Shown: positions 1-35,959, counted from the stretch's first letter. The stretch is 36,246 nt of DNA from a virus (IMGVR_UViG_2563366806_000005); one strand, 5' to 3'. Made by a program: numbers and translations. The notes: generated by a model from the sequence alone, not told the origin.

Positions 1-1053
1 TTACGGGGTAATGCCAACCGCTGCCGCCACTTTGTCGCCACTTGGCAGCGTTGCCAGAGGATTGAAACGGAGCGCCGTTTCCAGATGATCCGGTGCCAGA
101 TGTGCGTAACGCATAGTCATTTTTATATCGTGGTGTCCGAGAATTTTTTGTAAGGCCAGAATGTTTCCACCCGACATCATGAAGTGCGCCGCAAACGTAT
201 GGCGCAGAACGTGTGTGAGTTGACCGCGAGGGAGCACGATAGACGTTTTTTCCATCACGGATAAAAATTGAAAATAGCAGTCTGTGAAGAAATTGAACCC
301 ATCAAGCGCCATGATCTCTTCGTAAAGCTCTTTACTGATAGGGATGCTTCTGTTTTTCTTCCCCTTCGTTCTTACAAAGGTAATTCGGTATTTGGTCACC
401 TGTGAACGAGTAAGATTTACGGCTTCTCGCCAGCGTGCGCCTGTGCTTAAGCATATCTTAACTACCAGTGCCAGAATTGGGTCCTGACGTTTGCAATCAG
501 CCAGTAATTCAACAATCTGCTCATGGGTAAGCCATGCCATCTCTTTTTCTGCGATGGTGAATTTTCGCATGTTCTCCAGTGGGTTCGGATACGACCATTC
601 GCCCAGGCGGGATAGTTCGCTAAAAACACTACTTAGATAGCTTTGCTCCAGGTTAATGGTGACCGGGCTTGCTCCTTTCTTCCATTTCTCGCTGAAGTAG
701 ATCTCACCTGTCAGGCGTTTATCTCGATAGTGGGCAAACATTTTAGAGGTTAGATCAGTTGCAAGGGGATTGCCCAGAGCGTCAACCATCAGCAGCAATT
801 TGTCATAGACATGCTGCCCAGCAGTCAGTGATTTACCATGTAGTTTGAACCATAGCTCAACCACGTCTTTCAGTGTTCGACGATCCACTGATTCACCTAG
901 CCAGGGCTTTGCTTCGGTTTCTTCCATCGTGTGACGCTCAAAAGCCAGTGCTTCGCCTTTGGTGGCGAATTGTTTACGCACACGACGCCCACTACGTCCG
1001 GCGGGGTAACATTCGCAAAGCCATTTTCCTGTGGTGAGTTTTCGTACAGCCAT
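1..1053 (-). CDS. int: Tyrosine recombinase / integrase (P2/186 Int family), about 350 aa
   Basis: C-terminal catalytic region HVLRHTFAAHFMMSGGNILALQKILGHHDIKMTMRYAHL (R..HxxR..Y signature); N-terminus MAVRKLTTGKW resembles P2 Int; ATG at 1053 preferred over the upstream in-frame start at 1131. Confidence 0.9.
   Translation of the reverse strand: MAVRKLTTGKWLCECYPAGRSGRRVRKQFATKGEALAFERHTMEETEAKPWLGESVDRRTLKDVVELWFKLHGKSLTAGQHVYDKLLLMVDALGNPLATDLTSKMFAHYRDKRLTGEIYFSEKWKKGASPVTINLEQSYLSSVFSELSRLGEWSYPNPLENMRKFTIAEKEMAWLTHEQIVELLADCKRQDPILALVVKICLSTGARWREAVNLTRSQVTKYRITFVRTKGKKNRSIPISKELYEEIMALDGFNFFTDCYFQFLSVMEKTSIVLPRGQLTHVLRHTFAAHFMMSGGNILALQKILGHHDIKMTMRYAHLAPDHLETALRFNPLATLPSGDKVAAAVGITP
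19..40. repeat. attL: Candidate attL core, cgctgccgccactttgtcgcca, direct repeat of 33392-33413
   Basis: 21 of 22 nt identical to the sequence immediately after the ogr stop codon; lies inside the 3' end of int, so the last int codons would be host-derived if this is the core. Confidence 0.4.
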
Positions 1054-1241
1054 AAAAAATGCCCTCCAATAGAGAGCATTTTTACTGTATGTATAACCAG
1101 TGTCAATGTATGAAATCCTGCGACCATACATCTCACTGAAGCCATAATGAAGTAGGCTATTCTTTTTGCTATGTGATCATGTAACTTTTGCGGTTAACCT
1201 GTGGCTCATTTTTATTTTAGGCGCAGATATAAAAGCAAAAG

Positions 1242-1433
1242 TTATCGTGAGTTTTTAGTACAGATTTTTTTGGATTTACTAATAGTTCCATCATTGCAAA
1301 CGAATTTGCCATCAGAGGTACAGTGAGAAACACCTCCCTTTTTCCCTGAGCAGGGATAATTTCTAGCATAGGTAGCTAGTGGGTTTAATAACAAAGAACA
1401 TGACAAAACCACAAAAAATACCTTACCAAGCAT
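1242..1433 (-). CDS. Small secreted cysteine-rich protein, 63 aa, with predicted signal peptide; cargo gene in the lysogenic operon
   Basis: Strong RBS GGAGG 5 nt before ATG; hydrophobic N-terminus [23 protein letters not shown] followed by about 40 aa with 6 Cys; AT-rich island between cI and int. Confidence 0.5.
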
Positions 1434-1448
1434 AATTTCCTCCCGGTA

Positions 1449-2018
1449 CTATTTAACATACTTGACTGTTAAACTTATAATTTTACCAATTATTTCAATG
1501 TCTTCTATCTTACATTCAAAGGCTCTGTTTCCACCCTCGACGAAGATTCTTCCACCGGGTAAACGAGTAATGTCACGGATCGTTATTTCGCCATCAATAC
1601 TTATTACCCATTTACCATCACGTATATCATCAAATTCCTTATCACAAATAAATTCAGAATTATTATCTGTGATTACAAAAAGATTCTTGAATGCCGACGG
1701 TAGAAATTCTCTATCGAAAATATAAAAACCGTCTTCACACAAGGCCCCATCAGATAATACATATTTAGCAACTTCCATAGTATTTGTATTACCTGAAGTT
1801 TGCTTTGAACCATGCCCGGTTGTGAGCCAATTAAGCGAGGTGCCTGTTTCAAGGGCGCACTGGATTACCCATTCTGCTGGGAATGAGTCACGCATGTAGC
1901 GTGTGGCGAGTGTACTTTTAGAGATTCCTAAATGATCGCACAACGCCTGTCGAGTCTTGAATCCATAAGCTTCTACCATGCGCTCTATGGCGCCTCGTCC
2001 GCCTTTCTCCAAATTCAT
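1449..2018 (-). CDS. cI: CI-type immunity repressor (phage 186 CI-like)
   Basis: About 190 aa, N-terminal HTH-like segment (LCDHLGISKSTLATRYMRDSFP), position between int and apl, same strand as int; start taken at the ATG at 2018 with a GGAG RBS (track start 2024 is GTG). Confidence 0.75.
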   Translation of the reverse strand: MNLEKGGRGAIERMVEAYGFKTRQALCDHLGISKSTLATRYMRDSFPAEWVIQCALETGTSLNWLTTGHGSKQTSGNTNTMEVAKYVLSDGALCEDGFYIFDREFLPSAFKNLFVITDNNSEFICDKEFDDIRDGKWVISIDGEITIRDITRLPGGRIFVEGGNRAFECKIEDIEIIGKIISLTVKYVK

Positions 2019-2042
2019 GGTCACTCCAAGTGAACTTTTATC

Positions 2043-2071
2043 TTGACGATTTCACCGTGCGATCGTATGTT
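2043..2071 (+). promoter_or_regulatory. Candidate lytic promoter pR (-35 ttgacg, 17-bp spacer, -10 tatgtt) in the cI/apl switch region
   Basis: Sigma70-like hexamers read directly, about 75 nt upstream of apl. Confidence 0.3.
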
Positions 2072-2143
2072 TATGGTGTTCACAAAATACAAACGATCCG
2101 TATTCGTCCTGATTAATCATCATTAAACGAGGAATGTTGCATC

Positions 2144-3948: not shown

Positions 3949-4802
3949 GCACCATCCTGAAATGGGCGGGAAATAAAACTGCCATAATGTCCGAACTAAA
4001 AAAACATCTTCCTGCTGGCCCGCGACTGGTTGAACCTTTCGCGGGTTCCTGTGCTGTGATGATGGAGACGGATTATCCCAGCTATCTGGTTGCGGATATT
4101 AATCCTGATTTAATCAACCTCTATAAAAAGGTTGCCGCTGATTGTGAATCGTTTATATCTCGCGCCAGAGTTTTATTTGAGATCGCAAACAGGGAGATGG
4201 CTTATTACAACATAAGGCAGGAGTTTAATTACTCAACTGAAATTACTGATTTCATGAAAGCGGTATATTTCCTGTATCTCAATCGTCACGGTTACCGTGG
4301 TTTATGTCGCTATAACAAGAGCGGGCATTTCAACATTCCCTACGGTAATTATAAAAATCCGTATTTCCCTGAAAAAGAAATTCGCGCATTTGCAGAAAAG
4401 GCCCAGCGAGCAACGTTTATCTGCGCCAGCTTTGATGAAACGCTGGCGATGTTGAAGGCGGGGGATGTGGTGTATTGCGATCCGCCGTATGACGGTACGT
4501 TTTCCGGCTATCACACTGACGGCTTCACTGAAGATGACCAGTATCACCTGGCATCTGTTCTTGAACATCGGTCATCAGAAGGACATCCGGTCATTGTTTC
4601 TAACAGTGACACATCCCTGATCCGTTCGCTGTATCGCAATTTTACTCACCACTACATCAAGGCAAAACGCAGCATCGGTGTGGCAGCTGGCGAGGGTAAA
4701 TCAGCAACAGAAATCATTGCTGTTTCCGGGCCGCGCTGCTGGGTGGGATTTGATTATTCGCGTGGCGTGGATAGTTCTGCCGTGTACGGAGTACATGCAT
4801 GA
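3945..4802 (+). CDS. dam: DNA adenine methyltransferase (Dam family, GATC-type), orphan
   Basis: N-terminal AdoMet motif [11 protein letters not shown] and catalytic DPPY motif (VYCDPPYDG); RBS ggagg before ATG 3945; no adjacent restriction gene. Confidence 0.85.
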
Positions 4803-7213
4803 GTCATGCCGATATGAACAACTGCTGCGGCTTTAACGAAGCTGCCGCATCGTTCTCATGGAACAGCCCGAAAAAGGCCATTAACCCTTATCTGGACCCG
4901 GTGGAAGTTGCGCCGGTTTCTACGCTTTCAAACCTGATCACTCTGTACGCTGCCGATAACGAGCAGGAACAGCTGCGCCGTGAGGCGCTGAGTGATCAGG
5001 TCTGGGAGCGTTATTTCTTTAATGAATCCCGTGATCCTGTCCAGCGCGAAATGGAACAGGATAAGCTCATTAGTCGGGCAAAGCTGGCGCATGAGCAGCA
5101 GCGTTTTAATCCGGATATGGTCATTCTGGCGGACGTCAACGCCCAGCCTTCCCATATCAGCAAGCCGCTGATGCAACGTATTGAATACTTCAGCAGCCTG
5201 GGCAGGCCAAAGGCTTATTCCCGCTATTTACGTGAGACGATTAAGCCATGTCTGGAACGACTGGAGCATGTACGCGACAGTCAGCTATCTGCATCTTTTC
5301 GCTTTATGGCAAGCCATGAAGGGCTGGACGGCCTGCTGATCCTGCCTGAAATGAGTCAGGATCAGGTGAAACGCCTGTCCACCCTGGTAGCTGCGCATAT
5401 GAGTATGTGCCTTGATGCCGCTTGTGGCGATTTGTATGCCACCGATGACGTTAAGCCAGAAGAAATCCGCAATACATGGGAAAGGGTGGCAGCGGAAACC
5501 CTGCGTCTGGATGTCATCCCGCCTGCGTTTGAGCAACTCCGTCGGAAAAGAAACCGCCGTAAACCCGTGCCCTATGAACTCATTCCGGGTTCGCTGGCGC
5601 GTATGTTGTGCGCCGACTGGTGGTATCGGAAATTATGGAAGATGCGTTGCGAATGGCGGGAAGAGCAGTTGCGTGCTGTCTGCCTTGTCAGCAAAAAAGC
5701 ATCTCCCTATGTCAGCTATGAAGCCGTGTTGCATAAACGTGAGCAGCGCCGTAAGTCGCTGGAGTTTTTCCGTTCTCATGAACTGGTGAACGAAGACGGC
5801 GACACGCTAGACATGGAGGATGTGGTAAACGCCAGCAGCAGCAACCCTGCGCATCGCCGCAATGAGATGATGGCCTGTGTTAAAGGTCTGGAGCTTATCG
5901 CGGAAATGCGCGGTGACTGCGCCGTTTTCTACACCATCACCTGTCCGTCACGTTTCCATTCCACGCTAAATAACGGCAGGCCCAATCCGACCTGGACAAA
6001 TGCGACGGTAAGACAAAGCAGCGATTATCTGGTCGGTATGTTTGCTGCATTTCGTAAGGCGATGCACAAAGCCGGGTTGCGCTGGTATGGCGTGCGGGTG
6101 GCTGAGCCGCATCACGACGGCACAGTTCACTGGCACCTGTTGTGTTTCATGCGCAAAAAAGACCGCCGCGCCATTACAGCATTGTTGCGTAAGTTTGCTA
6201 TCCGTGAAGACCGCGAGGAGCTGGGCAATAACACGGGGCCGCGCTTTAAGTCTGAGCTGATTAACCCGCGCAAAGGAACGCCGACAAGCTACATAGCGAA
6301 ATACATCAGTAAGAACATTGACGGGCGTGGTCTGGCTGGCGAGATCAGCAAGGAAACGGGTAAATCTCTGCGTGATAACGCTGAATACGTGAATGCCTGG
6401 GCGTCTTTGCATCGTGTTCAGCAATTCCGCTTCTTTGGCATTCCGGGGCGTCAGGCTTACCGTGAACTGCGATTGCTGGCTGGTCAGGCGGTAAGGCAAA
6501 AGGGGGACAAAAAAGCAGGTGCGCCGGTACTGGATAACCCGCGCCTTGATGCCATCCTGGCTGCTGCTGATGCTGGTTGTTTTGCCACCTACATCATGAA
6601 GCAGGGCGGCGTACTGGTTCCCCGTAAATATCACCTCATCAGAACCGCTTATGAAATCAACGAAGAGCCGACCGCCTATGGCGATCACGGCATTCGTATT
6701 TATGGCATCTGGTCACCCATTGCAGAGGGCAAGATCTGCACTCATGCAGTGAAGTGGAAAATGGTTCGTAAAGCCGTTGACGTTCAGGAGGCGGCAGCCG
6801 ACCAGGGCGCTTGCGCCCCTTGGACTCGTGGCAATAACTGTCCCCTTGCTGAAAATTTGAACCAACAAGGGAAAGACAAATCAGCTGATGGGGATACCAG
6901 GACGGACATTACCCGCATGGATGACAAGGCGTTGCACGATTACCTGCACAGTATGAGCAAAAAAGAGCGCCGGGAACTAGCTGCAAGGTTACGCCTGGTG
7001 AAACCGAAACGGCGTAAAGACTACAAACAGCGAATTACAGACCATCAGCGACAGCAGCTCGTCTATGAACTGAAGTCCAGAGGATTTGATGGCAGCGAGA
7101 AAGAGGTCGATTTACTCCTTCGCGGCGGCAGTATTCCGTCAGGAGCAGGCCTGCGTATCTTCTATCGGAACCAGCGTTTGCAGGAAGATGATAAGTGGCG
7201 AAACCTGTATTAA
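4799..7213 (+). CDS. A: Replication initiation endonuclease A (P2 gpA / 186 A, rolling-circle initiator)
   Basis: 804-aa protein with [10 protein letters not shown] and HWHLLCF motifs typical of P2 A; position after early genes. Confidence 0.85.
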
Positions 7214-7921: not shown

Positions 7922-8641
7922 ATGACAACTATTAACAAGCATGGGTTATCTAGAACAATTCCTGAACCTGTAAAACTGGAGGTAAGGCAGCGCTGTGGCT
8001 TCGGTTGCGTTGTTTGTGCTTCTCCCATTGTTGAGTATGAGCATGTAATTCCCACATACGCTGATGCAAAGGAGCACTCTCCAAATGCAATAGCACTACT
8101 TTGTCCTACGTGCCATGCGAAAGTAACGAAACGTCTTTACTCTAAAGAGAAAATAATTAAAGCAATGGAATCTCCTGCAGCCTTACAAAAAGGGAATGTG
8201 GCCGATATATTGGACTTTTCTGATAGGCATCCAACAATAATATTTGGTGGTGCGACGTTTGAATCCTGTACTGTACCAATAATGTTTCAAAATGAGCCAT
8301 TGTTAACCATTGAAAAAGAAAATAATGCTTTTCTTATTTCGGGTAAATTTTACGATAGTCAAGGTATTGTTAATCTTGAATTAATTAAGAATGAGTGGGT
8401 TTGTAGTGCAAGGCATTGGGATGTTCAGGTTGTCGGTCCTAGAATAACTATTATAGAAAAAAGGAAAGGTCCTCGTTTAATTATTAAAGTTGATGCGCCT
8501 GAAAGATTGATTGTGGAAAGATTAGATATGTTGGTTAAGGGGACTCGGATTGTAGGAGACGAACACAAGCTAAGAGTAGGTCCACATCAATTTCACAACT
8601 GTGGAGTTTCAAATTGCAATATTGGTTTCTGCTTTGGCTAA
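7922..8641 (+). CDS. Uncharacterised HNH-motif (zinc-finger nuclease-like) protein, 239 aa; candidate accessory or defence gene
   Basis: CGFGCVVC...EYEHVIP...N..LLCPTCH (CxxC..H..N..CxxCH HNH-type signature) at the N-terminus; AT-rich; located between tum and cos, the P2 old/tin-equivalent position. Confidence 0.55.
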   Translation: MTTINKHGLSRTIPEPVKLEVRQRCGFGCVVCASPIVEYEHVIPTYADAKEHSPNAIALLCPTCHAKVTKRLYSKEKIIKAMESPAALQKGNVADILDFSDRHPTIIFGGATFESCTVPIMFQNEPLLTIEKENNAFLISGKFYDSQGIVNLELIKNEWVCSARHWDVQVVGPRITIIEKRKGPRLIIKVDAPERLIVERLDMLVKGTRIVGDEHKLRVGPHQFHNCGVSNCNIGFCFG

Positions 8642-8754
8642 CTGGAGGTTGGAAAAAGACCATTTCCTATAAGCTGAGTATTTCGTACATTTTTGCCAAC
8701 GCATGTCTATGCCGCATGAAATCGCATGATCGTTTGAGGATCGTTTTTGCTGAT

Positions 8755-8779
8755 GCCCGCCAGAGCTGGCGGGCTTTTG
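8755..8779 (+). terminator. Rho-independent terminator after the HNH gene
   Basis: gcccgcc-agagct-ggcgggc stem-loop followed by tttt. Confidence 0.5.
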
Positions 8780-8823
8780 CTTATGTCATGCAGGTGCATG
8801 AAAACCACTACACAAAGCGGGCA

Positions 8824-8842
8824 GGCGTGGCGGGGATACGAG
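8824..8842. other. cos: Candidate cos (cohesive end) sequence GGCGTGGCGGGGATACGAG
   Basis: Resembles the P2/186 cohesive-end sequence as I recall it (GGCG[A/T]GGCGGGGAAAGCA.) followed by GCGCGC; located between the right-end genes and portal Q, where cos lies in P2. Confidence 0.4.
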
Positions 8843-8864
8843 CGCGCGCCATGTGGTATGGAGA

Positions 8865-8893
8865 TTGGATCTATTCATAACTTGATGTATAAA
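8865..8893 (+). promoter_or_regulatory. Candidate retron operon promoter (-35 ttggat, 17-bp spacer, -10 tataaa)
   Basis: Hexamers read directly, about 25 nt upstream of the effector start. Confidence 0.35.
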
Positions 8894-8916
8894 GTAGAAA
8901 AAAAAGCGGGGAGATT

Positions 8917-9840
8917 ATGAATAAAAAATTTACCGATGAGCAGCAACAACAGCTTATAGGACATCTCACAAAGAAAGGCTTCTATCGAGGAGCTAATATT
9001 AAAATAACCATTTTTCTATGTGGTGGTGACGTTGCTAATCATCAATCTTGGCGTCATCAATTATCACAATTTTTAGCAAAGTTCAGTGATGTTGATATAT
9101 TTTATCCAGAAGATCTATTTGATGATCTTTTGGCTGGTCAAGGGCAGCATAGCCTTTTAAGTTTAGAAAATATTCTGGCTGAAGCTGTCGATGTAATAAT
9201 TTTATTTCCTGAAAGTCCGGGGTCTTTCACAGAGCTTGGTGCGTTCTCTAATAATGAAAACTTAAGGAGAAAGTTGATTTGCATTCAAGATGCAAAATTT
9301 AAATCAAAACGTAGCTTTATTAACTATGGTCCTGTTCGCCTGTTGCGTAAGTTTAATTCAAAATCTGTTTTGCGTTGTAGTTCAAATGAACTAAAAGAAA
9401 TGTGTGATTCATCTATTGATGTTGCCAGAAAATTACGATTATATAAAAAATTAATGGCATCTATTAAGAAGGTTAGGAAAGAAAATAAAGTATCAAAAGA
9501 TATTGGAAATATATTATACGCAGAGCGGTTTCTATTGCCTTGTATCTATTTACTGGATAGTGTCAACTACCGCACACTGTGTGAACTAGCTTTTAAAGCG
9601 ATAAAGCAAGATGATGTTTTATCTAAAATTATTGTTAGATCCGTTGTTTCTCGTCTAATAAATGAACGAAAAATACTTCAAATGACTGATGGTTATCAGG
9701 TCACTGCTTTGGGGGCTAGCTATGTTAGGAGCGTCTTTGATAGAAAGACACTTGACCGATTGCGGCTTGAGATTATGAATTTTGAAAACCGTAGAAAATC
9801 AACATTTAACTATGATAAGATTCCGTATGCGCACCCTTAG
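8917..9840 (+). CDS. Retron accessory effector, 307 aa (Ec86/Eco1-type; reported as nucleoside deoxyribosyltransferase-like N-glycosidase plus DNA-binding domain)
   Basis: Immediately upstream of msr-msd and RT, same strand, stop codon inside msr repeat a1; AT-rich; function assignment is from recalled literature on Ec86, not from a motif I can verify by eye. Confidence 0.8.
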   Translation: MNKKFTDEQQQQLIGHLTKKGFYRGANIKITIFLCGGDVANHQSWRHQLSQFLAKFSDVDIFYPEDLFDDLLAGQGQHSLLSLENILAEAVDVIILFPESPGSFTELGAFSNNENLRRKLICIQDAKFKSKRSFINYGPVRLLRKFNSKSVLRCSSNELKEMCDSSIDVARKLRLYKKLMASIKKVRKENKVSKDIGNILYAERFLLPCIYLLDSVNYRTLCELAFKAIKQDDVLSKIIVRSVVSRLINERKILQMTDGYQVTALGASYVRSVFDRKTLDRLRLEIMNFENRRKSTFNYDKIPYAHP

Positions 9841-9996
9841 CGAGAGGTTTATCATTAAGGTCAACCTCTGGATGTTGTTTCGGCATCCTGCATTGAATCT
9901 GAGTTACTGTCTGTTTTCCTTGTTGGAACGGAGAGCATCGCCTGATGCTCTCCGAGCCAACCAGGAAACCCGTTTTTTCTGACGTAAGGGTGCGCA
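9828..9996 (+). ncRNA. msr-msd: Retron msr-msd non-coding RNA (template for msDNA), Ec86/Eco1-type
   Basis: Flanked by 12-nt inverted repeats a1 tgcgcaccctta (9828-9839) and a2 taagggtgcgca (9985-9996); internal stem-loops gaggtt..aacctc and ggagagcatc..gatgctctcc; sequence matches the Ec86 ncRNA as I recall it. Confidence 0.9.
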
Positions 9997-10002
9997 ACTT
10001 TC

Positions 10003-10965
10003 ATGAAATCCGCTGAATATTTGAACACTTTTAGATTGAGAAATCTCGGCCTACCTGTCATGAACAATTTGCATGACATGTCTAAGGCGACTCGCATATC
10101 TGTTGAAACACTTCGGTTGTTAATCTATACAGCTGATTTTCGCTATAGGATCTACACTGTAGAAAAGAAAGGCCCAGAGAAGAGAATGAGAACCATTTAC
10201 CAACCTTCTCGAGAACTTAAAGCCTTACAAGGATGGGTTCTACGTAACATTTTAGATAAACTGTCGTCATCTCCTTTTTCTATTGGATTTGAAAAGCACC
10301 AATCTATTTTGAATAATGCTACCCCGCATATTGGGGCAAACTTTATACTGAATATTGATTTGGAGGATTTTTTCCCAAGTTTAACTGCTAACAAAGTTTT
10401 TGGAGTGTTCCATTCTCTTGGTTATAATCGACTAATATCTTCAGTTTTGACAAAAATATGTTGTTATAAAAATCTGCTACCACAAGGTGCTCCATCATCA
10501 CCTAAATTAGCTAATCTAATATGTTCTAAACTTGATTATCGTATTCAGGGTTATGCAGGTAGTCGGGGCTTGATATATACGAGATATGCCGATGATCTCA
10601 CCTTATCTGCACAGTCTATGAAAAAGGTTGTTAAAGCACGTGATTTTTTATTTTCTATAATCCCAAGTGAAGGATTGGTTATTAACTCAAAAAAAACTTG
10701 TATTAGTGGGCCTCGTAGTCAGAGGAAAGTTACAGGTTTAGTTATTTCACAAGAGAAAGTTGGGATAGGTAGAGAAAAATATAAAGAAATTAGAGCAAAG
10801 ATACATCATATATTTTGCGGTAAGTCTTCTGAGATAGAACACGTTAGGGGATGGTTGTCATTTATTTTAAGTGTGGATTCAAAAAGCCATAGAAGATTAA
10901 TAACTTATATTAGCAAATTAGAAAAAAAATATGGAAAGAACCCTTTAAATAAAGCGAAGACCTAA
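10003..10965 (+). CDS. ret: Retron reverse transcriptase, 320 aa
   Basis: Retron-RT motifs NLLPQGAPSSPKLANL and RYADDLTLS (YADD box); starts 7 nt after repeat a2. Confidence 0.95.
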   Translation: MKSAEYLNTFRLRNLGLPVMNNLHDMSKATRISVETLRLLIYTADFRYRIYTVEKKGPEKRMRTIYQPSRELKALQGWVLRNILDKLSSSPFSIGFEKHQSILNNATPHIGANFILNIDLEDFFPSLTANKVFGVFHSLGYNRLISSVLTKICCYKNLLPQGAPSSPKLANLICSKLDYRIQGYAGSRGLIYTRYADDLTLSAQSMKKVVKARDFLFSIIPSEGLVINSKKTCISGPRSQRKVTGLVISQEKVGIGREKYKEIRAKIHHIFCGKSSEIEHVRGWLSFILSVDSKSHRRLITYISKLEKKYGKNPLNKAKT

Positions 10966-33413: not shown

Positions 33414-33471
33414 TCGTTAAAAAACAGTGCTTCTAACATCATGATTTTAAAGAGCATAAATTTCAGGCAAC

Positions 33472-33514
33472 AAAAAACCCATCAACCTTGAACCGAAATG
33501 GCGGGGTTGATGGG
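33472..33514 (-). terminator. Rho-independent terminator of ybjL (minus strand)
   Basis: cccatcaacc / ggttgatggg 10-bp stem followed on the minus strand by a T6 run. Confidence 0.6.
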
Positions 33515-33626
33515 CTCCACAAAATGGGGACATCAAAGAAAAGCAGTGGCACTAATTAAGACTGATGCCCTGCGGAAAAGTTCTGCGGTTGTGCAAAAAA
33601 ATTTCATTTTCAGGGCAACTTCAGTT

Positions 33627-35312
33627 TTATCCTAATCCTGGCCATACCATGACGATGATTGTCCCTGCCAGCGTCAGCAGGACGTTGGCGATTGCATAGG
33701 TGCCCGCATAGCCCAGCGCCGGGATGTTACTGCGAGCTGTATCACTGATGATCTCCATTGCCGGCGCGCAGGTACGTGCGCCCATCATTGCGCCGAACAA
33801 CAGCGCGCGGTTCATTCGCAATACATAAGCACCGAACAAGAAACAGATAACCACGGGCACCAGACTGACAATCAATCCGGCAATCAACATCTGACCGCCA
33901 ATCGCGCCCAGGCCGTTATTAATACCGCTACCGGCGCTCAGACCAACGCCTGCCATAAACACCATCAAGCCGAACTCTTTCACCATGCTTAATGCACCCT
34001 GCGGAATGTAACCGAAGGTCGGGTGGTTAGCACGCATAAAGCCCAGCATAATTCCGGCGAATAACAACCCGGCAGCGTTCCCCATGCCGAAACTGAATGT
34101 GCTGAACTGGAAGGTGATCATCCCGATCATCAGCCCAATAACAAAGAAGGCGCAAAATGCCAGCAGGTCAGTGACCTGGCTGTGAATCGAGATAAAGCCG
34201 ATGCGATCGGCGATGGTTTTTACGCGACGGGCATCACCGCTGACTTGTAAAACGTCACCTTTGTTAAGCACGACGTTGTCATCTATCGGCATCTCAATCT
34301 GGCTACGAATGACGCGGTTAAGGAAGCAACCGTGATCGGTCAACTTCAGTTGTGCGAGACGTTTACCTACAGCGTTATGGTTTTTAACGACCACTTCTTC
34401 AGTGACGATACGCATGTCGAGAAGGTCACGATCGAAAACTTCTTTACCGTTACGGAAGCTGGGATCGAGTCGGGCATGGGCGTCGGGATAGCCTACCAAC
34501 GCTATTTCATCGCCCATTTGTAGCACGGCATCACCGTCTGGATTTGCCAGAATCCCGTTACGTCGAATACGTTCAATGTAGCAGCCGGTTTGTCGATAAA
34601 TACCCAGTTCACGCAGATTTTTGCCGTCGGTCCAGGCCACCAGCTCCGGGCCGACGCGATAGGCGCGGATCACCGGTAAATAAACCTTACGGTTGGCATC
34701 AGTGTCCAGGCCACGTTCGCGGGCGATTTGCTGGGCGCTGGTCTGTAAGTCCTGATGCTGCAATTTCGGCAAGTAACGCGCACCAACAATCAAACTCACC
34801 AGACCGATTAAATAGGTTAAGGCATACCCGAGGCTCAGATTATCCAGTGCCAGTGAGAGCTGCCTGCTTTCCATGCCGGAATGACGCAGTGTATCGCCAG
34901 CACCGACCAGAACCGGTGTCGACGTCATAGAGCCTGCTAACATACCGGCCGTCAGGCCAATATCCCAGCCAAACAGCTTACCTAACCCTAAGGCGATCAC
35001 CAGCGCACTGCCAACCATCACCAGTGCTAACATTAGGTAATTTTTCCCATCGCGAAAAAAAATGGAAAAAAAGTTCGGTCCGGCTTCAACCCCAACACAG
35101 AAAATAAACAGCATAAAGCCAAGATTAAGCGCATCGGTGTTAATGCTGAAATGTTGTTGGCCTAATAACAGCGATACGACTAAAACGCCAATGGAATTAC
35201 CCAGTTGGATCGAACCAAGTCGTAACTTTCCGAGACATAGCCCAAGCGCGAGGACCACAAATAATAACAGAATGTAATTCCCATTTAACAATTCGGCGAC
35301 GTTTATATTCAC
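33627..35312 (-). CDS. ybjL: Putative transport protein YbjL (AAE-family transporter)
   Basis: 561-aa polytopic membrane protein; N-terminus [33 protein letters not shown] matches E. coli YbjL as I recall it. Confidence 0.85.
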
Positions 35313-35581: not shown

Positions 35582-35959
35582 GTGAAACATAAACAACGTT
35601 GGGCGGGGGCAATCTGCTGTTTTGTCCTCTTCATTGTGATGTGCCTTTTTCTGGCGACGCACATGAAAGGCGCTTTTCGGGCTGCCGGGCATCCTGAAAT
35701 CGGCTTGCTATTTTTCATTCTTCCTGGAGCAGTCGCCAGCTTCTTTTCACAGCGTAGAGAAGTCCTGAAACCTCTGTTTGGCGCAATGCTGGCGGCACCC
35801 TGTTCGATGCTCATTATGCGGCTGTTTTTTTCACCGACGCGCTCATTCTGGCAAGAGCTGGCATGGTTATTAAGTGCGGTGTTCTGGTGTGCGCTGGGGG
35901 CACTGTGTTTCTTATTTATCAGTAGTTTGTTTAAACCACAGCACAGAAAAAATCAGTAA
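35582..35959 (+). CDS. ybjM: Inner membrane protein YbjM
   Basis: 125-aa membrane protein, GTG start with RBS aggagg; between ybjL and grxA as in E. coli K-12. Confidence 0.8.
   Translation: MKHKQRWAGAICCFVLFIVMCLFLATHMKGAFRAAGHPEIGLLFFILPGAVASFFSQRREVLKPLFGAMLAAPCSMLIMRLFFSPTRSFWQELAWLLSAVFWCALGALCFLFISSLFKPQHRKNQ

Follow-up and report, generated by a model that had tools for sequence, protein, structure and literature searches.

A conserved YdcA-family gene for a small, putatively exported protein lies between cI and int in a P2/186-like Escherichia coli prophage

In the annotated lysogenic operon of phage 186, the promoters pL/pE are followed by cI, int, orf69 and a terminator. In the viral sequence IMGVR_UViG_2563366806_000005, the 36,246 nucleotides of which are referred to here as the window, a short open reading frame (ORF) stands between the repressor and integrase genes, which raises the question of what this ORF encodes and what its product could do in a lysogen. 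The window opens, at its left end, with the early region of an E. coli prophage that is P2/186-like (Peduoviridae-type). Its minus strand holds a 186-type CI repressor gene (1449..2024; Pfam PF07022 and PF16452; RefSeq relatives start at the ATG at 2018), the ORF (1242..1433, stop codon included), a spacer of 188 nt (1054..1241) and the tyrosine integrase gene int (1..1053; Int_N and Phage_integrase domains), whose RefSeq relative is also 1053 nt long. On the plus strand are apl (2144-2365) and cII (2392-2907; PF06892), followed by fil-like genes and a dam methylase. The cI-apl intergenic region (2025..2143) is expected, by analogy with 186 only, to be the pR/pL switch. Many E. coli chromosomes in RefSeq contain the 1.1-kb int-ORF-cI stretch with 100% identity; their annotation names the ORF 'hypothetical protein' or, where the record is more recent, 'YdcA family protein'. 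A first-pass annotation, made from the nucleotide sequence without database searches, had placed a 63-aa ORF between cI and int on the strand of cI, and this was borne out at 1242-1433 on the minus strand.

Read on the minus strand, the junction from the cI stop codon to the start of the ORF is TAG-TACC-GGGAGG-AAATT-ATG, with 15 nt from the cI stop to the ATG. The Shine-Dalgarno sequence GGGAGG (1439..1444, minus strand) ends 5 nt upstream of the ATG, and the near-ideal ribosome-binding site that had been claimed, GGAGG with a 5-nt spacer, is therefore present. The ORF had also been described as lying in an AT-rich island. The low GC content is real (0.31-0.37 across approximately 1100-1800, versus approximately 0.45-0.55 to either side), but it is not specific to the ORF, as the AT-rich stretch covers the spacer, the ORF and the 3' two-thirds of cI. 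The ORF has its low GC (0.34-0.37) in common with the 3' part of cI, and no promoter of its own was predicted. A near-consensus sigma-70-like site, TTAACA-17-TATAAT (11/12 matches), lies antisense within the 3' end of cI (1453-1481, plus strand) and may be a chance match in AT-rich DNA. An Rfam scan of the window gave no match in or near 1132-1448.

Family and selection evidence indicated that the ORF is a genuine gene under strong conservation, whose product is a tiny YdcA-family protein with predicted export. Residues 5-63 of its product matched the NCBIfam model NF007463 (PRK10040.1-2, YdcA group) with 114.6 bits against a curated cutoff of 93 (E=1.3e-33), whereas the sister model NF007462, that of K-12 YdcA, scored the protein at 68.5 bits against a cutoff of 118. 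PHROG 6000, annotated as of unknown function, was matched at E=3e-34, and close homologues have the precomputed Pfam assignment PF27300; the local Pfam copy was without PF27300, and with it the ORF gave only a sub-threshold GULLO2 match. A profile search of 1.84 billion representatives (50% identity) returned 452 proteins at E <= 1e-3, and a word-indexed search returned 1192 family clusters at 90% identity. The family motif PCSGxKGG[IV]xxC...F[VI]CxDG[ST]xSxSK[KR]xC has been retained in alpha-, beta- and gamma-proteobacteria, and in alignments of 25 and 58 sequences the cysteines C28, C38, C46 and C58 and the motif residues P, S, G, G, F, G, S and S were invariant. Compared with two diverged E. 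coli variants, the mature part of the protein had synonymous and nonsynonymous differences (Sd/Nd) of 8/1 and 10/2, with pS of 0.37 and 0.46 versus pN of 0.012 and 0.024 for the two alleles. The resulting pN/pS of approximately 0.03-0.05 points to strong purifying selection on the mature part. The earlier claim of a protein-coding small-peptide gene is upheld by the above-cutoff match to NF007463, the match to PHROG 6000 and the excess of synonymous change, and the homology search in other prophages that the first-pass annotation had proposed found relatives in Yersinia, Buttiauxella and Haemophilus phages. Two further sets of candidates were rejected. Matches to LDL-receptor class A, Notch and proteinase-inhibitor domains had E >= 0.01 and reflect cysteine spacing, and a circular-permutation link to DUF3761, the sole Pfam match of the permuted constructs, was not significant (E=0.14-0.48).

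The product is a 63-aa protein with a single domain. Its N-terminus, MLGK followed by a 12-residue stretch and NPLATYA, has the layout of a Sec signal, after which the sequence continues with RN. Codons 1-23 (1365..1433, minus strand) would therefore encode a Sec-type signal peptide, with signal peptidase I cleavage predicted after T-Y-A, and codons 24-63 (1245..1364, minus strand) would encode a mature domain of 40 aa with a net charge of +7 and four invariant cysteines. Among 25 homologues Ala23, at position -1, was invariant and the h-region was variable; together with the n/h/c layout this agrees with the signal-peptide-like N-terminus described at first. The mature region had been credited with six cysteines, and this count was wrong: there are four (C28, C38, C46 and C58), and a fifth, C12, is located in the signal peptide and is unconserved. 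A lipoprotein, for which VLSC at residues 9-12 was the candidate site, was rejected, since this cysteine is too near the N-terminus and unconserved and the A-x-A-type site at 23 is invariant.

An AlphaFold2 model of the mature domain (pLDDT 86) is a small knot based on a beta-hairpin. The top PDB match in Foldseek was one lobe of Dis2 (7MUC/7MUD chain AN; probability 0.99, TM 0.70, rmsd 1.7 A, 42% identity), the next-best match had a probability of <= 0.10, and an earlier model, with the signal peptide still attached, led to this match as well. Sequence-profile searches of PDB sequences independently chose Dis2 chain AN (E=1.4e-4 and 2e-5). Model and profiles thus both show the predicted fold of the phage domain to be that of one Dis2 lobe.

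Dis2 (Lpg0823) of Legionella pneumophila is a subunit of the outer-membrane cap in the type IV secretion system (T4SS) known as Dot/Icm, near the outer membrane, where disulfides hold it and it touches the lipoproteins DotC, DotD and DotK (PMC8486379, PMC12716638). Like Dis2, the phage protein has a signal peptide and is predicted to be disulfide-stabilised and periplasmic. Dis2, however, consists of two tandem lobes with five disulfides and is a stoichiometric part of the T4BSS, whereas the phage protein is one free domain with four cysteines and comes from a P2/186-like prophage; no T4SS genes were seen in the part of the window that was domain-scanned. As a single Dis2-like lobe, the phage protein is related to Dis2 without being one itself. 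The same alignments and models indicate that Dis2 is a two-repeat member of the widespread YdcA/PF27300 family, and two- and three-repeat relatives exist in other bacteria (P0078-P0082). In the papers, Dis2 is regarded as confined to the Legionellales and as having no structural relatives. The T4SS is hardly affected when Dis2 is lost (PMC12716638), so that binding by the module may matter little.

The same host has a chromosomal paralogue, ydcA, whose core domain is 74% identical to that of the prophage protein. K-12 YdcA (b1419; PRK10040 group, PF27300) and the phage protein are both approximately 57-63 aa long, have a Sec signal peptide and have in common the four-cysteine motif PCSGxKGG[IV]SHC...KFVCNDG[ST]ISxSKKxC. 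They differ in charge, the phage protein being the more basic, and in setting: ydcA lies between hokB and cybB/rydC and the phage gene behind cI, and the phage gene is presumably under the control of the phage switch and not of YdcI, RpoS or acid. For K-12 YdcA, a protein of 57 aa with a predicted periplasmic location, the literature gives the function as unknown (bioRxiv 10.1101/2024.02.12.579971; PMC7642389). In E. coli W, deletion of ydcA sensitises cells to 3-hydroxypropionate, the gene is needed for growth at 300 mM, and it was reported to be YdcI-controlled and acid-induced (PMC7642389). A SELEX peak of the RpoS holoenzyme was mapped to the rydC/ydcA intergenic region (PMC5493296). Otherwise ydcA appears incidentally, in transcriptome and SELEX tables, and our search of the literature found no functional study of ydcA, its family or the prophage copy.

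Expression of the ORF in lysogens is predicted from gene position only. The ORF would be co-transcribed with cI from the lysogenic promoters, and its protein would therefore be made continuously in lysogens; terminator prediction gave no minus-strand candidate in the gap from cI to the ORF. Downstream, the spacer folds better than shuffled controls (188 nt; z=-3.3), and 157 nt beyond the ORF its transcript can form a 12-bp hairpin, AAAAAUGCUCUC-UAU-UGGAGGGCAUUUUU (1056-1084, minus strand), which holds the int Shine-Dalgarno sequence; a U-run and the int AUG come after it. This hairpin resembles a terminator or an element that sequesters the RBS, in either case restricting how far int would be expressed from the cI transcript, and it may attenuate int. 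Since it may terminate transcription, the unit may be a cI-ORF rather than a cI-int transcript; the ORF itself, being upstream of the hairpin, would be unaffected. A promoter-like sequence, TTGACA-17-AAAAAT (1106..1078, minus strand), overlaps the left arm of the hairpin. The stretch at 1001-1111 of the window is common to the Klebsiella 4LV2017 group, with 95.5% identity.

The cI and ORF module was found in 649 of 5426 complete E. coli genomes (approximately 12%) from many hosts, including BL21 and NEBExpress, and 631 of the 649 have both parts. BL21 and NEBExpress have a variant of 63 aa, WP_001321204.1, whereas the allele of the window is found in natural isolates. The 80 best loci of an IMG/VR scan all came from near-identical prophages of E. 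coli and contributed no further diversity. Exceptions are rare. In one, an ISApl1 insertion trims the last codons of the ORF, and in another (E. coli ZH48; L176 25-2491) the ORF is replaced by a second CI-like gene of 307 aa together with a KAP NTPase gene. In E. coli CI5 (L009 1142-2473) a KAP NTPase gene is inserted between the ORF and int, so that the ORF stays with cI.

More distant relatives retain this arrangement with diverged repressors. Prophages of Yersinia have the order cI, YdcA-like gene, int, and their CI is 38% identical to that of the window. In Buttiauxella one additional ORF separates the YdcA-like gene from cI, and neither of the two downstream ORFs examined was detected as an integrase. 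Across the Yersinia, Haemophilus and Buttiauxella relatives, CI is only 32-38% identical to the window CI. In the pL lysogenic unit of the Haemophilus phages HP2 and S2, a 60-aa member of the same family is encoded right after a 186-type cI of 191 aa, and int lies further downstream. The HP2 CI is only 32% identical to the window CI, and the start codon of the HP2/S2 ORF begins on the last base of the cI stop codon. HP2 also differs in having a secreted 254-aa orf1 between the YdcA-like ORF and int. Taken across these phages, the ORF appears to have been associated with the 186-type repressor either repeatedly or over a long time. The HP2 family gene (NC_003315 2486-2668, complement; L001 2944-3126) is missing from the GenBank annotation and is also present in S2.

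The ORF is nevertheless not a fixed part of these phages. In phage 186 and SopEPhi cI abuts int and the ORF is absent, most sequenced Peduoviridae have no homologue of it, and Klebsiella phage 4LV2017 and Escherichia phage vB_EcoM-813R9 have other genes after cI. The cargo after cI in relatives comprises a 1050-bp hypothetical gene, an ATPase gene, or a second CI-like gene with a KAP NTPase. The absence of the ORF from 186 and SopEPhi and the differing cargo in the slot indicate that it is dispensable cargo. The first-pass annotation had regarded the ORF as a lysogenic-conversion gene encoding an exported peptide, either toxin-like or receptor-modulating. Its status as accessory cargo, missing from 186 and SopEPhi, and its position on the cI strand, 15 nt after cI, agree with a putative lysogenic-conversion gene; the toxin-like part of the proposal fails on evidence given below, and a receptor-modulating role is possible. 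The genes that vary in the slot between cI or the ORF and int (KAP NTPases, the CI-like gene and the ATPase) could be defence genes. In vB_EcoM-813R9 the cI-int slot holds a 558-aa 'chromosome segregation ATPase' (L006 3591-5267).

Outside these phages, the domain is found in other architectures and genomic contexts. Longer members of the family carry it after a signal peptide and before an SNase, Endonuclease_NS, PLDc_2 or VasL domain; the first three of these are secreted nucleases with mutually unrelated folds, and the fusion to Endonuclease_NS, a DNA/RNA non-specific endonuclease, is represented by several proteins and a Crenothrix locus. Some members have two or three copies in tandem, and the domain is also combined with the PBCV basic adaptor domain. 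On small Mob plasmids of Acinetobacter and Psychrobacter a member adjoins the mobilisation genes, copies also exist in Pseudomonas phages, and in the Moraxella Mcat and Acinetobacter Vieuvirus siphophages a homologue lies on the late strand among tail genes, upstream of the tape-measure gene. Beyond CI/HTH repressors, no conserved partner was found among 125 non-redundant immediate neighbours at 80 species-level loci. The fusions to nuclease and VasL domains, taken with these contexts, suggest that the domain is most likely a periplasmic docking or targeting module, and they point neither to an enzyme nor to a toxin. One subfamily of proteins with the YdcA domain is linked by gene neighbourhood and fusion to type VI secretion (T6SS). 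On the Citrobacter plasmid NZ_CP053574 (L179 4995-5396) a member lies inside a T6SS cluster, after tssA-F-G-J-E, and in protein P0119 the YdcA domain is fused to a VasL/EvfB domain.

The best explanation overall, to which we give about even chances, is that the ORF encodes an accessory periplasmic docking mini-domain of the YdcA family that is made by the lysogen. The signal sequence and the family alignment suggest that the 63-aa precursor would be exported by Sec and cleaved after Ala23. The product would be a basic periplasmic mini-protein of 40 residues, with a net charge of +7, in which the four invariant cysteines most likely form two disulfides. Such a domain would most likely serve as a docking module, with either a partner close to the outer membrane or a polyanion, for instance DNA, as its candidate target, and the bare module, by occupying a binding site in the envelope, could change what crosses the envelope. 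The net charge of the core domain across the family has a mean of +3.6 and spans -1 to +8, compared with +7 for the mature peptide of the window, so that polyanion binding could not be universal. Further points count against a lysogen-made docking mini-domain. The chromosomal ydcA, judged by its core of 74% identity, would already supply the host with such a protein, the Moraxella and Acinetobacter phage homologues lie among tail genes and not in a lysogeny operon, and the loci of 80 species have no neighbouring gene in common.

Altered entry of foreign DNA or phage would be the likeliest role of such a protein, and envelope stress tolerance the next. That the prophage module forms a barrier to incoming phage or foreign DNA, complementing the immunity conferred by cI, is speculative, and we consider it doubtful though worth entertaining. 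A comparison is offered by the envelope-located factors with which phages and plasmids effect exclusion or conversion: P1 Sim, T4 Sp/Imm, phi80/N15 Cor, T5 Llp, RP4 TrbK and P2 old/tin/fun, likewise small accessory genes of mobile elements. Factors of this type are expressed from the resident element, and many are exported to the periplasm or outer membrane and block the entry of incoming DNA there. The ORF protein has no sequence relationship to any of them in PHROG or PADLOC, and in PADLOC v2 it matches no defence family. We know of no YdcA-family member with an exclusion phenotype.

The alternative that survives best is that the prophage gene is a host-fitness factor: a constitutive extra YdcA would improve tolerance of the envelope to acid and organic acids, and lysogens would be favoured in the gut. 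We judge this unlikely. The requirement for ydcA in E. coli W in 300 mM 3-hydroxypropionate and its YdcI-controlled, acid-induced expression (PMC7642389), the RpoS-holoenzyme peak at rydC/ydcA (PMC5493296), the 74% identity of the prophage core to K-12 YdcA and the presence of the module in 12% of E. coli genomes from many hosts all agree with it. The acid and 3-hydroxypropionate data, however, amount to one phenotype of the paralogue and come without a mechanism, and the nuclease fusions, the T4SS and T6SS contexts and the tight coupling to cI in three immunity types would be left unexplained.

A reading that extends the docking proposal to the whole family is, in our view, unlikely. The domain would be a general periplasmic docking module for an outer-membrane-proximal site, or for DNA in transit, of which envelope-spanning machines that translocate DNA and protein make use. 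The bare domain would serve mobile elements (P2-like, Moraxella and Acinetobacter phages, Mob plasmids) as an entry barrier of a new class, one that keeps out superinfecting phages or stops conjugation, transformation or T6SS attack. In P2/186-type phages it would be hard-wired to the repressor, and Dis2, at present regarded as species-specific, would be a duplicated, domesticated member.

It is also conceivable, and in our view quite improbable, that the protein serves the phage's own life cycle, in infection, DNA entry, lysis or virion release, for example by docking at the envelope. The homologue on the late strand between tail genes in the Moraxella Mcat and Acinetobacter Vieuvirus phages agrees with such a role, and the fold is used, as Dis2, in an envelope-spanning machine for DNA and protein translocation. 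Positions in tail modules are, however, classic moron sites, and the gene is lacking in 186, SopEPhi and most sequenced Peduoviridae, lies here on the lysogenic strand directly behind cI, and occurs also as a solitary chromosomal and plasmid gene.

That the product is an exported cationic, cysteine-rich toxin or antimicrobial peptide acting on competitors is very improbable, in spite of its small size, its charge of +7, its cysteine stabilisation and its signal peptide. A Sec signal alone would take the protein only to the periplasm of a Gram-negative cell. Adjacent genes for immunity, processing or export are absent, the flanks being cI and int; the family is solitary, with no conserved partner across 80 species; E. 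coli has a core chromosomal paralogue; and elsewhere the domain acts as a module for structure or docking. The toxin-like role first suggested for the ORF has no support, in view of the lack of an immunity or export partner, the presence of a Sec signal only, the lack of a PADLOC match and the paralogue in the host chromosome.

A chance non-coding ORF in AT-rich spacer DNA has a negligible probability, even though other ORFs of 30-50 aa overlap the same AT-rich stretch on both strands, as this reading is already refuted by homology and selection (HMM matches down to E ~1e-33, homologues with the invariant motif across alpha-, beta- and gamma-proteobacteria and substitutions strongly biased to synonymous ones), and a strong Shine-Dalgarno sequence stands in front of the ORF.

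The gene belongs to a known, curated and uncharacterised family that is already annotated in RefSeq, and it is not a new kind of system. If its function were established, an orphan family that is widespread, with approximately 1200 clusters at 90% identity and a y-gene of E. coli K-12 among its members, would gain a role; the prophage module alone puts this family into approximately 12% of complete E. coli genomes. It would also explain the repeated wiring of the gene behind the repressor in P2/186-type phages of Escherichia, Yersinia and Haemophilus. Recurrent coupling to cI, high prevalence, kinship with Dis2 and fusions to nucleases make the gene a reasonable experimental target, and all of these fall within known kinds of prophage cargo. 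The placement of Dis2 in a broad family and the unannotated family gene of HP2 and S2 are side results that are independent of the function proposed here.

Elsewhere in the window, a type II-A retron (7922-10965, plus strand) lies in the hotspot for P2-type cargo that is bounded by replication gene A (4799-7213) and the portal/terminase genes. It consists of an HNH protein (7922-8641), an NDT_II-A effector (8917-9840; PADLOC E=2.7e-94) and a reverse transcriptase, RT_II-A (10003-10965; PADLOC E=7e-128), all on the plus strand. At the other end of the window are the RybB sRNA (33469-33547, minus strand; Rfam RF00110, 105 bits), a ybjL-like permease gene (33627-35312, minus strand) and ybjM (35582-35959, plus strand). 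This succession indicates that the prophage ends just before rybB and that the window runs on into the chromosome. On the int side, relatives carry rcdA.
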